Shown piece by piece: positions 1,068 to 60,475 of a DNA stretch of 64,000 bases. Positions within the stretch are counted from its first letter, which is position 1; every line of letters starts with the position of its first letter. The DNA is from Eledone cirrhosa (lineage: Eukaryota). The position numbers and the translations under genes were made by a program. The notes under the pieces are model-generated. The model saw only the letters and a list, made by a program, of their open reading frames with translations, made no database searches and was not told where the DNA came from. Location of the stretch: NCBI GenBank assembly GCA_964016885.1, contig OZ024743.1, positions 115,382,001 to 115,446,000 of the forward strand, given 5' to 3'.

Positions 1068-1474
1068 TAGGAAAAAGTATCACCCCGACGGCAGAGCTCA
1101 AGCCGTTTCGACGGCTATTTCTGGACTAAATTAGAATTTTTAGCCTGGTAAATATATAGCCGAACTTCCTTATATGGGAAGATTGTAGTTGTTAAGAGGA
1201 TTGGTCAAAATTTGAGACTTATTTGTGTTTACAACAAATTTTGACCAATCCTCTTGACAACTACAATCTTCCCATATAAGGAAGTACCCCTTGACAAGTT
1301 CGACTATTTATTTACCAGATTAAAAATTCTAATTTAGTCCAGAAATAGCCATCGAAACGGCTTGAGCTCTGCCGTCGGAGCCATACTTTTTCCTATTACC
1401 CACTCTACTACCCTAAGTATTGACTACTCTGGTACGTCATGGTCCATCTGGTTCCTTACCACATTTCCTTCGTT
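1068..1474 (+). mobile_element. Fold-back pLTR remnant, family A (other pieces at 61-142, 3580-3767, 24218-24287, 24622-24720, 37727-37921)
   Basis: Arms 1068-1213 and 1237-1395 are inverted. Shared tail ...ccttaccacatttccttcgtt(AT)n; flanked by (AT)n. Confidence 0.85.
1286..1381 (+). ncRNA. Hammerhead ribozyme-like motif, U3-A8 variant (family A)
   Basis: CCCC-UUGACAA-stem II (C(G/A)CUAUUU..AAAUAGCC)-GAAA-CGGC UUGAGCUCU GCCG-UC-GG(G/A)G. Sister copies give GGGGU for the 3' strand of stem I. Confidence 0.7.
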
Positions 1475-2845
1475 ATATATATATATATATATATATATAT
1501 ATTATAAATATATATATATATATATACATATATATATATATATATATATAGAGAGAGAGAGAGAGAGAGATACGGAGGGAGAGAGACACTGACTACAATG
1601 TAAGAGAGAGAAGTGAATAAAGACCATGATGAATAAGATATAATGTAAAGTGAATGAGAAGTGCATCTACAAACACACAGACGAACACACACACACACTC
1701 ATAATATGTATATGTGTCTCTGTGTGTGTTTGTGTGTGTTTGTGTGTGTATGTGTGTGTGTATGTGTGCGTGTGCGTATGTGTGTGTGTATGCGTGTTAT
1801 TATATTGTAAATATAGATCAACATATACATACGAGGTATACTGAATACCTTCAACAACATACTATTAATATATTAAAACTTACCACAAGTTTGAAAAGAA
1901 GAGCAAAATAACGTGAGGCATACTTTTGTAATAATTATATATATATATATATATATTTATATATATATATATATCCAAATACAGGGGCGGGGGAATTGAG
2001 GGGCAGAAGGTGGCAAGAACGCCCTCCCTCCCCAGTAATTGAAGGGATCAGAGATAGTGTAGGCATACATATATATATATATATATATATATATATATAT
2101 ATATATATATATATACATATATAAATATATATATATATATATATATATATATATATATATATATATATATATATATATATATATATATATATATATATAT
2201 ATATATATATATTTATATATATATATATATACACATATATCATGGTATCGGGAATAACAGGAATAATTAGACAGGAAGTATTGGTCAGAAGGAGAAATGT
2301 ATTGAGAGTTCATTTAGTATATATATATATATATATATATATATATAAATATCACGATAAATTAACGGAGCCATAGACTCTCGTTATTCCCTGTCAATAA
2401 TGTGTTCAAAGGAAAAGGAATTCTGAGTTCTTTAAACAACTTCCTGGCGAAACAGTTCTGTTTGGATGTGTACGCGTGTGTTATATAGTTATAGGGTGCG
2501 TATATATATTTTAATTTATATTTTTAATTATTGTGTGTCTACCATGACTTCCACAGATTATAGACTCCATACACTGGTGGTTTTCCCTATTTTATTAATG
2601 GCACACTATCTCTCTTTAGTGTGTTACCTTTTCAACATATTGTATATATATATATATATTTCATTCATATATATATATATATATATATATAAATTTTTTT
2701 TGTTTTTTTTTCATTCTTATATATATATATATATATATATATATATATATATATATTGCAAGGGGTGTCAACATGAATCCACCTGTTATTTTTATCTAAA
2801 TAATTTTTTCCAGTTACATAATATCTATCTTATTTCTCATTCTTT

Positions 2846-2880
2846 CCTCTGATGAAGGAGTAGCATCCGAAACCTTAAGA
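2846..2880 (+). ncRNA. Minimal hammerhead-like motif in a PLE 3' remnant (2757-2965)
   Basis: CU-CUGAUGA-A-GGA guagca UCC-GAAA-CCU-UA-AG. Stems I and III are very short. Confidence 0.6.
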
Positions 2881-3059
2881 CCCTCTTCCTACTATACCAA
2901 GCGTTAACCTAATATGTCCCTTCCATATACTGTACCGATTGTGTTTTTATTTCTGTTTACCTTTTATATACATATAATATATATATATATATATATATAT
3001 ATATATATAGATATAGATAGGTAAATATACACGGGTGTGTATGATTGTGTATAGAAGAT

Positions 3060-3485
3060 TATATTAATAAGAGGAATTCCAACTTTGTCTGATTTACTCG
3101 TTTTATTTACAATCCTTTAAAATATATATAATGGTATTATAATGAAATAGTATGATAGAATATTAAATTCTAAGTGTTAATTGAACAAGTACTTTCATGC
3201 TTTCGCAATCTTCAGGTTCATGATATGTGGTGACAGTCGAGTTTGCAATTTTCAACTGTCTATATTTTTTTTTCATTCATATATATTTTCATTTGTCTGA
3301 CCCGAATTTTCTTGGTCGTATTTTTGGCTGTGCGAATGATTGTTTAAGCATCGTCTCAGTGTGTTGGTATTAAACGTTAATTATAGCTCTGGTTTATCCG
3401 AACTATTGAGCACTTTTCCACACATTTCGAAGAATGTGTTTCGTTATTTCGTGGGCCGAAGTTCCGATTCTCGATAACTTATTTG
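3060..3485 (-). mobile_element. Possible highly decayed PLE linker/3' fragment
   Basis: The minus strand reads ..FNTNTLRRCLNN..KYDQENSG, resembling the region just before a PLE GIY-YIG domain. It is bounded by (AT)n. Confidence 0.3.
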
Positions 3486-3579
3486 TATATATATATATAT
3501 ATATATATATATATATATATATATATATATATATATATATATATATAGTATATGTATTTATATATATATATATATATAT

Positions 3580-3767
3580 AACGAAGGAAATGTGGTAAGG
3601 AACCAGGTGGACAATAACGCACCAAAGTACTCAATACTTGAGGTAGTAGAGTGGGTAATAGGAACCAGTAAGACCCCGACAGCTGAGCTCAAGCCGTTTC
3701 GACGGCTAATTCAGAATTAGCCGTCGAAACGGCTTGAGCTCAGCTGTCGGGGTCTTACTGGTTCCTA
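3580..3767 (-). mobile_element. Family A fold-back remnant with perfect ~52-bp arms
   Basis: 3659-3767 is a perfect palindrome centred near 3713; (AT)n on both sides. Confidence 0.88.
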
Positions 3768-3811
3768 TATATATATACATATATATATATATATATATAT
3801 ATATATATATA

Positions 3812-58371: not shown

Positions 58372-58780
58372 CTTACATTGAAGGAGTCTCTTGTCAAGCT
58401 GTCTACCTCACAGCTAGATTGCATTTTAACTGCACTTTGGCTGCACACCACTCGGTGAAACTGTTCTGTAGGGACAATGAAGAAAAATCAGGTGTTTTTT
58501 GTCTATTTGCTCATCAGACTTATAATTATATATAGCTCTGATTAATTGGTTATTTATCTAATTCATTCATTTATAGAGGAAAATTTGTAAATGATGGACA
58601 CCACACATATATATATATATTTATACATATGTATCTATATGTATGTCCTTACACTGAGGGAATCTCTTGACAAGGTTGGGTGTTTTAACTGCACTTTGAC
58701 TGCAAAAGCAGTCAGGACTATGAAGGAGAATTAGGTATGTTTTGACTATTTGCTCTTCACTTCACACTTGTAATTATATA
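58372..58780. repeat. Diverged local duplication
   Basis: gtccttaca.tga.gga.tctcttg.caag...ttttaactgcactttg.ctgca occurs at ~58370 and ~58645. Confidence 0.65.
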
Positions 58781-58885
58781 TATATATATATATTTATATA
58801 TAGTTATGTATAGTGGTAGCTATGGTGCTTCCATAGGCGGTATGCCAAAATTAGCACTCGATATTCATCAGAGTAGAGTGTAGAT

Positions 58886-59222
58886 ATTATAAAGAAAACG
58901 AAAAATCAGTGATGCATCTGGATTTAGTTTATTTTGTGTTACAAATGTTTCGCTGGCATGTAGCTCGAGTCATGGTCATTGTATGGATCTGGTTGATTCT
59001 ACTTCTGCGGGTATTTTCAGACACGGGTGTTTCGTCCGGAGCAAATTTTATCACCGATAACATTTGCTCCGGACGAAACACCCGTGTCTGAAAGAACCAG
59101 CAAAAGTAGAATCAGCCAGATCCATACAAATACCATAACGCGAGCTACATGCCGGCGAAACATTTGTAACACGAAATAAACTAAGTGCAGATGCCTCACT
59201 GATTTTTCGTGTTCTTTATAAT
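58886..59222. mobile_element. Fold-back insert with hammerhead-like motif (59083-59173 +)
   Basis: Palindrome centred near 59054. Motif CGUGU-CUGAAAGA-ACCAGC...GCCGGC-GAAA-CAUUUG-UA-ACACG. Confidence 0.8.
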
Positions 59223-59341
59223 ATATATATATATATATATATATATATATATATATATATATATATATATATATATATTATTAGAAAGTGAGGTTTTTTT
59301 TACAAAATGAAAAATAACCGAGTTGTCCTACGCGAGTGAAA

Positions 59342-59642
59342 GTATAGAGAAAAACAGATCAAATCGAAAATGCAACTGGAGTGTTATTTAAAAAAATATA
59401 TATATATTTATTTGGTTCCTTCACCGGTTTCGCAGTTCTTCTGCTTTTCAAAAGTAGAGTTGAGATGGAGGGTCTGTGGTTTTTCTCACATCAGATGTGA
59501 GAAAAACCACAGACCCTCCTTCTCAACTCTACTATTGAAAAAAAAAGAACTGCGAAACCGGTAAAGGAACCAAATAAATATATATATTTTTTTAAAGATA
59601 AGACTCCAGTTGCATTTTCGATTTCATCTTTTTTTCTATATA
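59342..59642. mobile_element. Fold-back insert with U3-A8 hammerhead-like motif (59419-59454 -)
   Basis: Palindrome centred near 59493. Motif CUU-UUGAAAA-GCAG aagaa CUGC-GAAA-CCGG-U(G/A)-AAG. Confidence 0.8.
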
Positions 59643-59704
59643 CATATTATATATATATATATGTATGTATGTTTGTATATAAATAGATATTTATATATAT
59701 ATAT

Positions 59705-60475
59705 GTAAGTATGTATGTATACGTACATACATATATGTATACAGACGTACAGTAGTATGTATATATATACATACATGGACATATATATATATATTTACGT
59801 ATGGGTTTACCGAACATTTATTATAATGCTCGGTTTGTTTGTAAACAAACAATCCAAATTACGCCGTACAGTGTTCAGGCAACCATCATCACTATTTTGT
59901 TCAACACTGACACAGGAACGATGTACATGTTTCAAGCTATTTAGCTATTGGGAGTATCGTGTACGTATATCTACATACTTACATTTAAGTACCAGCCGTA
60001 CTAAGAGTGAGAAAGGAAATTTCGTTTCATTCTTTTCCATTTATCGTTTTCGGTGCGCCCGGCCGACTAACTCACTCGATATGCAAATTAGGCTGCTTAG
60101 CCGTTAATATCCATAAGGAAAGTATATACTTTCAGATGTTCAACCATCCGACAGAAAGGTACGATGCTGACGATATCTAATAAGCTTGAAACTAGTATAT
60201 AGTTCCTGTGTCAGTGTTGAACAAAAATGTGACGATGGTTGCCTGAACGCTGTACGGCGTAACTCGGGCTGTTTGTTTACAAACAAACCGAGCATTATAA
60301 TAAATGTTTGGTAAACCCACTCGTACGTATATATATATGTGTGCATGTATGTATATATATACATACTACTGTACGTCTGTATACATATATGTATGTACGT
60401 ATATAAACATTCTTACATTTAAGTACCAGCCGTACTAAGAGTGAGAAATGAAATTTCGTTTCATTCTTTTCCTTT
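59705..60475. repeat. Fold-back insert with an additional direct repeat
   Basis: ~59712-59945 is inverted relative to ~60178-60402; 59978-60038 is repeated directly at 60412-60472. Confidence 0.8.

Follow-up and report, generated by a model that had tools for sequence, protein, structure and literature searches.

Fold-back insertions of Penelope-like elements at (AT)n microsatellites in Eledone cirrhosa: fixed ends, variable folds and a proposed two-primer origin

Fold-back cassettes in the window and across the genome

A 64,000-nt stretch of the Eledone cirrhosa genome (contig OZ024743.1, positions 115,382,001 to 115,446,000; hereafter the window) is rich in fold-back cassettes, in which two inverted arms and a one-sided tail lie beside (AT)n microsatellites. 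Alongside them lie Penelope-like elements (PLEs) with open reading frames (ORFs) for reverse transcriptase (RT) and endonuclease (EN), and tandem families that have no ORF (Table 1). The fold-backs are real and abundant and are an ordinary kind of PLE product. Cassettes are named by the start positions given in an earlier reading of the sequence (the original prediction); the refined spans are in Table 1.

Self-BLAST of the masked 64-kb window found inverted arms (39 to 500 nt, 82 to 100% identity) at all 18 of these starts. The (AT)n flanks claimed for both sides are present in 15 of them; 34295 and 45437 have (AT)n on a single side and 55199 on neither, its right flank being (GT)n. The cassettes had also been described as ORF-less, which fails for three window copies (14238, 32165 and 55199) and holds for 105 of 106 cassettes sampled across the genome, the remaining one carrying a PLE ORF remnant. 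Being neither (AT)n-anchored nor ORF-less, 55199 does not belong to the proposed pattern.

The genome sample comprised 120 evenly spaced 10-kb stretches (1.2 Mb), and sampled or fetched loci are labelled L plus a number. The inverted-repeat finder allowed spacers of up to 1.5 kb, a cassette was called where one arm contacts (AT)n and an 11- to 250-nt tail leads up to the next (AT)n, and the PLE protein queries were the ORFs of this window and their homologues only. The sample contains 237 non-redundant inverted repeats; 106, from 53 of the 120 stretches, are of the arm-plus-(AT)n-plus-tail type, compared with 5.25 ± 2.2 (maximum 11) expected by random placement within the same loci. Ten of the 106 were afterwards set aside as mis-paired or mis-bounded. 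Only 6 inverted repeats contact (AT)n at both arm ends. The expected enrichment of (AT)n was observed: known family ends contact 213 of 837 (AT)n runs of at least 20 nt, the corresponding figures being 6 of 135 for (CA)n and 5 of 66 for (GA)n.

The sampled cassettes span 50,128 of 1.2 million bases (∼4%) at a density of 88 per Mb, which upholds the proposal of a genome-wide layer; extrapolation from 1.2 Mb gives about 260,000 cassettes, or ∼4% of the 3.0-Gb genome. The 106 sampled and 18 window cassettes fall into 51 clusters, and each multi-member cluster has its own fixed arm start, herein Z, and its own tail. When copies of one family are compared, the fold-back point varies while the outer ends stay fixed. 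An inverted arm was detected at 108 of 238 tail-bearing sites (18 clusters) and at 30 of 39 sites in family A, both lower bounds; the idea that a tiny hairpin is the usual product of PLE insertion thus holds for family A and for about half of the sites overall.

Parent elements

Three proposed matches between arms and the 3' ends of ORF-bearing PLEs hold (3815 with 11495, 4540 with 20956, and family B with 32069), and 10 of the 18 window cassettes tie to RT/EN ORFs without a long (AT)n break. These are the family A cassettes 1068, 3659 and 37727 (an EN ORF lies 1 kb upstream in L005, and L030 holds the ORF start), 3814 (11495 and L089), 4583 (20953, through the tail end only; 36 nt at 89% identity), 14238, 32165, 54219 (L088 and L102), 55199, and 59342, whose family directly follows an EN frame in L040. 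A weak ORF link was found for 45437 (75%, L079).

The PLE origin put forward in the original prediction is supported; the prediction overlooked that four of the 18 (10708, 34295, 51119 and 59705) arise from ORF-less tandem monomer families with units of ∼320 to 540 nt. In L127 (G000:C22, 12.0 Mb), 19 ORF-less monomers of 468 nt, all from the 59705 family and each with a complete type I hammerhead ribozyme motif, follow one another and stop at the family Z; L234, L236, L240 and L256 each have two ORF-less units in succession, likewise with complete motifs. Judged by sequence, the 59705, 10708 and 51119 families would qualify as retrozymes that lack long terminal repeats (non-LTR retrozymes), which are recognized by at least two ORF-less hammerhead units. 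The ORF-less families end at Z or the tail beside (AT)n and have inverted copies, as ORF-bearing PLEs do; this common insertion signature is direct sequence evidence that a PLE protein mobilizes the retrozyme-like families.

The element at 14240-18546 has the layout of an EN-bearing PLE, with a partial tandem of pseudo-long terminal repeats (pLTRs; 768-nt direct repeats at 99% identity), an inverted 5' copy (415-nt arm) and a one-sided 108-nt tail, and other copies share it. Its main ORF (15472-17796) has 186 homologues. The family is young, since 115 of 150 scored genomic matches to the N terminus of the ORF are at least 88% identical and several have open frames of 781 aa. Pfam and PDB sequence searches gave no match to the main ORF. 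A predicted model (pLDDT 83) matches RT folds, a DRT2 RT and TERT being the closest structures (E values of 5e-10 and 3e-9; TERT ranks 2 to 3), and a YRDD motif is conserved in the ORF and its homologues, as in a telomerase-related RT. The C terminus has conserved residues (Y519, Y532-x-G534, R543, H547, E605 and N618) that fit the GIY-YIG pattern of a putative endonuclease; no profile or listed fold match named the domain.

Several marks of the Hydra clade are present: the order RT then EN, DKT, a CxCX5C linker, CxxC/CxH around the conserved E and N, and a (TA)n target. Among homologues of the ORF, ADKT occurs in 82 of 120, CxCX5C in 87 of 120 and CxxC..CxH in 100 of 120. Canonical hammerheads are stated to be universal in this clade (Craig et al. 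2021, PMC8557442). The young 14238 family differs in that a canonical hammerhead was not found, the 3' half alone being present, and we therefore label it Hydra-type rather than a full member. Other families with the same linker do carry a hammerhead. The 20953 and 55199 elements look like members of another clade.

A 14-nt motif (∼15345-15360) is common to the tail of the autonomous 14238 element and the spacer of the ORF-less 10708 monomer (L232-L237); it is possibly a protein-binding or mobilization signal.

Fixed ends and variable folds

Every family has two fixed outer ends, the internal site Z and a tail end 30 to 210 nt further 3'. Insertions have one fixed end per side, with their halves joined head to head at a variable point; this was seen in family A, in the multi-member clusters among the 51, and in the 58886 family, in which the fold point differs between copies. 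Z lies at TAT/ATA in 76 of 96 cassettes. Among copies of the 14238 family, some inverted arms begin at Z and others at the tail end; the far end of the element is the other of the two in 16 of the 18 for which both ends were read (P = 6.6e-4; 30 loci, of which 20 far ends were fetched, minus one truncated and two without an inverted arm, one of the latter giving no match, plus the window copy). The 10708 family shows the same either/or ends in 9 of 9 further copies among 11 other loci, one with a partial arm; for the multi-unit copies of both families the rule holds in 25 of 27 (P = 2.8e-6). Two independent insertions back to back in one (AT)n tract, with the intervening DNA later deleted, would not obey such a rule. 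PLE ends do accumulate in common (AT)n tracts, and unpaired Z-only and tail-only ends occur, as back-to-back insertion would have it; however, the junctions lack (AT)n, and the inverted arm carries the same variant as its own forward part in 353 of 366 comparisons at polymorphic positions (96%; a single boundary base makes up 7 of the 13 misses), the figure for other copies being 66%. We consider this origin quite unlikely.

Spacers of at least 20 nt number 72, of which 23 are cleanly oriented; 12 come from the tail-less arm and 11 from the tail-bearing arm, including copies whose arms are 100% identical. Some insertions lack any arm overlap (L031, L156, and the read joints 1500/1569 and 1503/1566). 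Because either arm may be longer and some pairs do not overlap, neither arm can be a copy of the other. This bears on snap-back, in which one cDNA or antisense RNA folds back and copies itself (Arkhipova et al. 2013); self-priming from an antisense template has been proposed (PMC3846280). The common source variants of the two arms speak for such a route, as do the many short loops (at most 30 nt in 34 of 78 non-family-A cassettes versus 18% under permutation), an excess that leans toward one shared RNA and that family hot spots could also cause. Snap-back fits poorly, however, with the private sequence that each arm often has, tail on one and upstream sequence on the other (12 of the 23 oriented spacers), with the non-overlapping inversions, and with the extended tail-less arms of young genomic copies; it also leaves unexplained the Z and tail ends in either order and the long ORF-bearing copies that end at Z alone (11495, 32069 and many of family B). 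On balance we regard it as unlikely.

Nineteen junctions were inspected and 10 are anchored on both sides; seven of these show microhomologies of 1 to 3 nt, one is blunt and two carry inserts, and the insert at L153 was copied back and forth between both ends. Microhomology and templated inserts are also compatible with a simple forward insertion made palindromic later by host replication or repair, through template switching at a stalled fork or break, and (AT)n tracts are fragile. The new arm nevertheless always begins at a family-fixed site within the element and often holds sequence missing from the forward copy, which host copying could not supply; a host origin is very unlikely.

Palindromic elements that propagate as a unit, like miniature inverted-repeat transposable elements (MITEs), would account for the modal form of family A, whose inner ends lie at −45 to −70 in 19 to 20 of 24 pairs, and TA-type targets also suit some DNA transposons. 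The fold-backs differ from MITEs in their copy-specific junctions and in a one-sided tail outside the inverted repeat, which places them outside the MITE definition of terminal inverted repeats at each end and a fixed internal sequence common to the copies, and their arms run on into RT/EN ORFs or hammerhead monomers; a MITE-like origin is extremely unlikely. In annotation, ORF-less PLE palindromes could nonetheless be misfiled as MITEs, short interspersed nuclear elements (SINEs) or microRNA hairpins.

Palindromes beside (AT)n are hard to sequence, and the junctions of the window itself are unspanned by independent reads, as might be expected of a long-read or assembly fold-back artefact. The chance of such an artefact is practically negligible: the arms start at family-fixed sites and have diverged (median identity 95%; 13 of 106 identical), and the joints and both end types occur in raw Illumina data for three further samples of one study. 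In an alignment to a family A reference, the reads that end in (AT)n number 1,632 to 1,742 per run for Z and 1,006 to 2,149 per run for the tail end; 14 listed strand-switch joints at different places, and 14 further ones, are each supported by 1 to 5 read starts. Short-read contigs give other fold points for three more families.

As to the target, an insertion that creates (AT)n de novo was considered and is not favored: 167 flanked cassettes yielded 13 candidate empty sites, 12 of them simple-repeat or nested-end matches, and none is AT-free. One local duplicate has (AT)7 where 85 + 94 nt surround 10708; it is weak evidence because both its flanks are repeat pieces. Targeting of pre-existing (AT)n tracts is preferred, although insertion may lengthen them. 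Recurrent one-sided family A variants were dropped as query bias. At L227 (G000:C13, 34.61 Mb), separate 43-nt tail fragments lie on either side of the sole Z/Z insertion found in the 14238 family.

A proposed mechanism

Based on the either/or ends, the finding that either arm may be longer and the same source of both arms, we favor double target-primed reverse transcription over snap-back. The fold-backs would be single insertions of a PLE, or of an ORF-less retrozyme-like passenger, into (AT)n, a reading to which we assign a probability of roughly 0.7. The endonuclease would cut both strands of the (AT)n tract; of the two free 3' ends, one would start cDNA synthesis at Z and the second at the tail end, with 2 to 3 nt of TA pairing assisting each. 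Both primers would yield minus-strand cDNA running 5'-ward across the same RNA region, the template being either one RNA, with strand displacement, or two RNAs from one locus. Both cDNAs would often stop early, in family A within hammerhead stem II/loop II, and end-joining, using microhomology of 0 to 3 nt or leaving templated inserts, would fuse their 3' ends. Tiny hairpins would lie at one extreme of the reaction, the short one, and full-length elements that have an inverted pLTR at the long one; most likely the hairpins are dead by-products, their ribozyme having been cut off or masked.

In L1 twin priming, both target ends likewise prime cDNA on the element RNA and the inversion is joined by microhomology; the second primer uses variable internal sites and the pieces do not overlap. 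Unlike those of L1, the pieces of the window families usually duplicate each other because both starts are fixed near the 3' end. Double priming may even amount to a third route of retrotransposition, a tentative proposal that we hold at slightly under even odds. One ribonucleoprotein would hold both ends of a double-strand cut and prime both on one RNA at two programmed sites, and the overlapping minus-strand cDNAs would be fused 3' to 3'; if true, a single reaction would lie behind the tail, the inverted pLTR and the spread of retrozymes, and would have produced ∼260,000 palindromes (∼4% of the DNA).

Several points weigh against double target-primed reverse transcription. The end rule is broken in 2 of 18 copies of the 14238 family (L161 tail/tail, L179 Z/Z), the ORF-bearing copies of that family were length-selected, a few symmetric hairpins are present in the sample, and 130 of the 238 tail-bearing sites have no detectable inverted arm. 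Post-insertion deletion at the palindrome center could mimic some cases of a longer tail-less arm. The same-source test is weak in the 10708 family (48 of 64 versus 59%), where the mismatches fall at A/T runs and at the tail end. Parents of 5968, 51836 and 58886 were not found, and the endonuclease call is a matter of motifs judged by eye, Pfam and PDB profiles giving no match to the ORF. The mechanism is itself deduced from end products, and the asymmetry of Z and tail needs an extra constraint, since in vitro Frangieh et al. report no start-site difference between the two strands.

Hammerhead motifs

At the family level, a complete type I hammerhead, counting U3-A8 and CAGAAGA cores, was found for 13 of the 18 cassettes; none was found for 4583, 5968, 14238, 55199 (ORF-internal) or 58886. 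Among the window copies themselves, four have a clean, whole hammerhead (3814, 10708, 45437 and 54219), six a core and GAAA box with a lesion, weak stem or non-standard core (1068, 32165, 34295, 51119, 59342 and 59705), four the 3' half only (3659, 37727, 58886 and 14238), and four no hammerhead (4583, 5968, 51836 and 55199). In the unbiased sample the complete motif occurs in 23 of 106 cassettes (0 to 4 in shuffles) and lies mostly outside the paired arms in 6. The statement that most cassettes carry a hammerhead ribozyme is therefore not sustained.

Nor does self-cleavage appear to be general. Most short copies end before the catalytic core, and motifs within an arm are predicted to be masked, the ribozyme fold costing 68 to 95 kcal/mol relative to the hairpin; for four motifs outside the arms the predicted cost is 2.5 to 10 kcal/mol (computed for 32165 from the last 450 nt only). 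A foldable whole hammerhead is plausible in 10708, 54219, 32165 and 34295 and in 6 of the 106 sampled cassettes. With the head-to-head layout, the antisense arm is the first transcribed, whichever strand is read. If transcribed inside introns or untranslated regions, the cassettes would supply long double-stranded RNA. Poor in-vitro cleavage has been reported for metazoan PLE hammerheads, as has the U3-A8 core for PLEs (PMC4209133).

The hammerhead core of family A is ∼119 nt upstream of Z and its cut site is at −18; the inner ends cluster at −45 to −70 and reach the core in only 1 to 2 of the 24 pairs. Folding at the ribozyme cut site was rejected for this family on these positions. The 24 pairs come from BLAST pairing that undercounts diverged subfamilies; the other count gave 30 of 39. 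Dozens of family B copies retain a fold resembling a hammerhead and carrying a CAGAAGA core, with an A at position 4; it is a candidate ribozyme variant for whose activity we cannot vouch. Window copies of the motif lie at 32130-32090 (−), 20863-20931, 34205-34270, 54737-54804 and 57985-58052. In the 14238 pLTRs the hammerhead 3' half is closed by an 8-bp stem and there is no catalytic core; the family is young, with many copies and intact ORFs. Rfam gave no hammerhead among the 150 of 188 window matches listed, nor on two clear control motifs; since it misses the controls it is blind to these hammerheads, and its miss on the 14238 pLTR is uninformative.

Relation to known elements

The inverted copy, the tail, the (TA)n bias, opposite-strand hammerhead pairs and the PLE origin of retrozymes are already published. 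The insertion unit of EN-bearing PLEs is described as a partial tandem with an adjacent inverted, 5'-truncated copy and a one-sided 30- to 40-bp tail (PMC8557442, PMC3846280). The cassettes share with it the head-to-head inverted copy, the tail at one end, strong 5' truncation, (TA)n targets and hammerheads near the end; they differ in having tails of 29 to 210 nt and in being mostly ORF-less minis at ∼88 per Mb. The passages considered from Craig et al. (2021) and Arkhipova et al. (2013) treat the tail as optional or one-sided, ascribe it to endonuclease resolution, and state neither an either/or rule nor that either arm may be longer; Craig et al. (PMC8557442) pose the origin of tandem and inverted PLE structures, and the microsatellite preference, as open questions. 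We found no either/or end rule or two-primer account of PLE inversion in the open-access literature, and PMC7943196 and the part of PMC13282606 considered have nothing on fold-backs. Paired ends, arm asymmetry in both directions and a shared source of the arms together make sharp predictions on PLE integration for the existing in-vitro Poseidon assay.

In vitro, Anolis Poseidon cuts and extends both strands at AT-rich targets, with two RNA start sites bounding the tail, and does not require ribozyme cleavage for insertion (Frangieh et al. 2024, PMC11167929). The two start sites fit the Z and tail ends of the window families; Poseidon differs in belonging to another clade, in that its start sites were not connected with inverted insertions, and in that its strands are alike in start site. 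Non-LTR retrozymes typically have units of ∼300 nt and a published PLE origin (PMC7229834; bioRxiv 10.64898/2026.07.22.740005). The 59705, 10708 and 51119 families resemble them in consisting of tandem monomers without an ORF, with one type I hammerhead in each unit, but their 434- to 540-nt units exceed the typical length, and they end at Z or the tail beside (AT)n and have inverted copies. In Schistosoma, minimal hammerheads occur as opposite-strand pairs with 100 to 700 bp between them (Cervera and de la Pena 2014, PMC4209133). These are probably the same short fold-back remnants, with the U3-A8 core and low in-vitro activity; the parts of that paper considered have no end mapping or mechanism.

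Features of the window

Table 1. Fold-backs and PLEs of the window, with refined spans
Feature	Positions	Strand	Structure	Hammerhead
Family A fold-back 1068	1069..1473	+	inverted arm 1069-1214 from Z, forward arm to 1394, tail 79 nt	U3-A8 core at 1291; cut site after 1376; damaged stem I; arm-masked
Family A minimal hairpin 3659	3581..3765	−	52-nt arms, 1-nt loop, 80-nt tail	3' half, 3700-3678
Fold-back 3814	3815..4512	+	arms 3815-4026 and 4209-4424, tail 88 nt	clean, 4326-4380, within arm (masked)
Fold-back 4583	4540..5953	−	arms 4581-5077 and 5453-5952, tail 41 nt	
Fold-back 5968	5970..6282	+	73-nt arms at 100% identity, 31-nt spacer is part of tail-less arm, 136-nt tail	
Fold-back 10708	10709..11141	+	ORF-less tandem family, unit ∼540 nt; 61-nt arms, 125-nt tail	clean, 10881-10952, in spacer (free)
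5'-truncated ORF-bearing PLE, 3814-related	11495..14185	−	terminates at Z, tail-less, adjoins (AT)n	
Full-length Hydra-type PLE 14238	14240..18546	+	inverted arm 14240-14654 (415 nt) from Z; pLTRs 14655-15422 and 17779-18546; ORF 15472-17796 with one stop; 108-nt tail	hammerhead-like 3' half, 15246-15257
Truncated PLE, look of another clade	20953..22826	−	RVT_1 match; EN frame 21824-22624; end matches 4583 tail	
Family B element 32165	32069..34184	−	1.9-kb copy with ORF remnant ending at Z (32069); inverted copy 33954-34184 without final ∼95 nt	variant, CAGAAGA core, 32130-32090, outside arm
34295	34293..34835	+	short inverted arm and 1.5 tandem units of ∼319 nt; left side without (AT)n	U3-A8, 34628-34664, second unit, weak stem II
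Family A minimal hairpin 37727	37727..37920	+	55-nt arms, no loop	3' half
Fold-back 45437	45390..45748	−	arms ∼127 nt; tail end uncertain, without (AT)n there	clean, 45531-45488, within arm (masked)
Fold-back 51119	51121..51657	+	ORF-less tandem family, unit ∼340 nt, tail ∼46 nt	one per arm, both with lesion
Hairpin 51836	51837..52144	+	arms ∼100 nt, tail 106 nt	family motif upstream of truncation point, hence not in this copy
Fold-back 54219	54222..54619	+	tail-less arm longer, 60-nt tail	clean, 54412-54378, − strand, in tail-less arm outside duplex
55199, decayed ORF-internal inversion	54920..56543	−	RT fragment 55402-55896, EN-like region below	
Hairpin 58886	58803..59220	−	165-nt arms, 85-nt tail	hammerhead-like 3' half near fold
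Hairpin 59342	59279..59647	−	arms ∼150 nt, tail 63 nt	U3-A8, 59451-59422, G at cut position
Fold-back 59705	59704..60475	+	ORF-less tandem family, unit 434 nt in this copy	60167-60197, stems damaged

Further pieces of the same families lie outside the predicted cassettes. Family A is represented by a piece that is mostly tail (62-144), a Z-end only (24218-24275) and an old, decayed hairpin (24606-24728), the 54219 family by a second fold-back (45875-46074), family B by a tail-bearing copy (54643-54918), and the 10708 family by a tail-less piece with a whole hammerhead (34883-35063). Body and reversed tail of another family are present as separate pieces at 9902-10411 and 10413-11399, with (AT)n on the flanks of each piece and a local duplication; the 10708 cassette sits within the second copy and has much longer (AT)n flanks. 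A PLE endonuclease remnant of the same protein group lies at 6809-7290 (−).

Other repeats are of different kinds. A candidate true MITE, unlike the fold-backs, lies at 38015-38435; its two ends carry terminal inverted repeats of 66 nt, and L056 and L131 contain similar copies. A 180-nt SINE-like repeat occurs at 32270-32448, 23750-23931, 35249-35394 and 47056-47196, one copy being inside an arm of 32165, and has 174 matches in 74 of the 120 sampled stretches. The interval 35444-36700 is a decayed coding remnant resembling a long interspersed nuclear element, with copies in 4 sampled stretches, and 62535-62785 is an old palindrome (71% identity) that does not touch (AT)n; the sample contains one copy similar to it.

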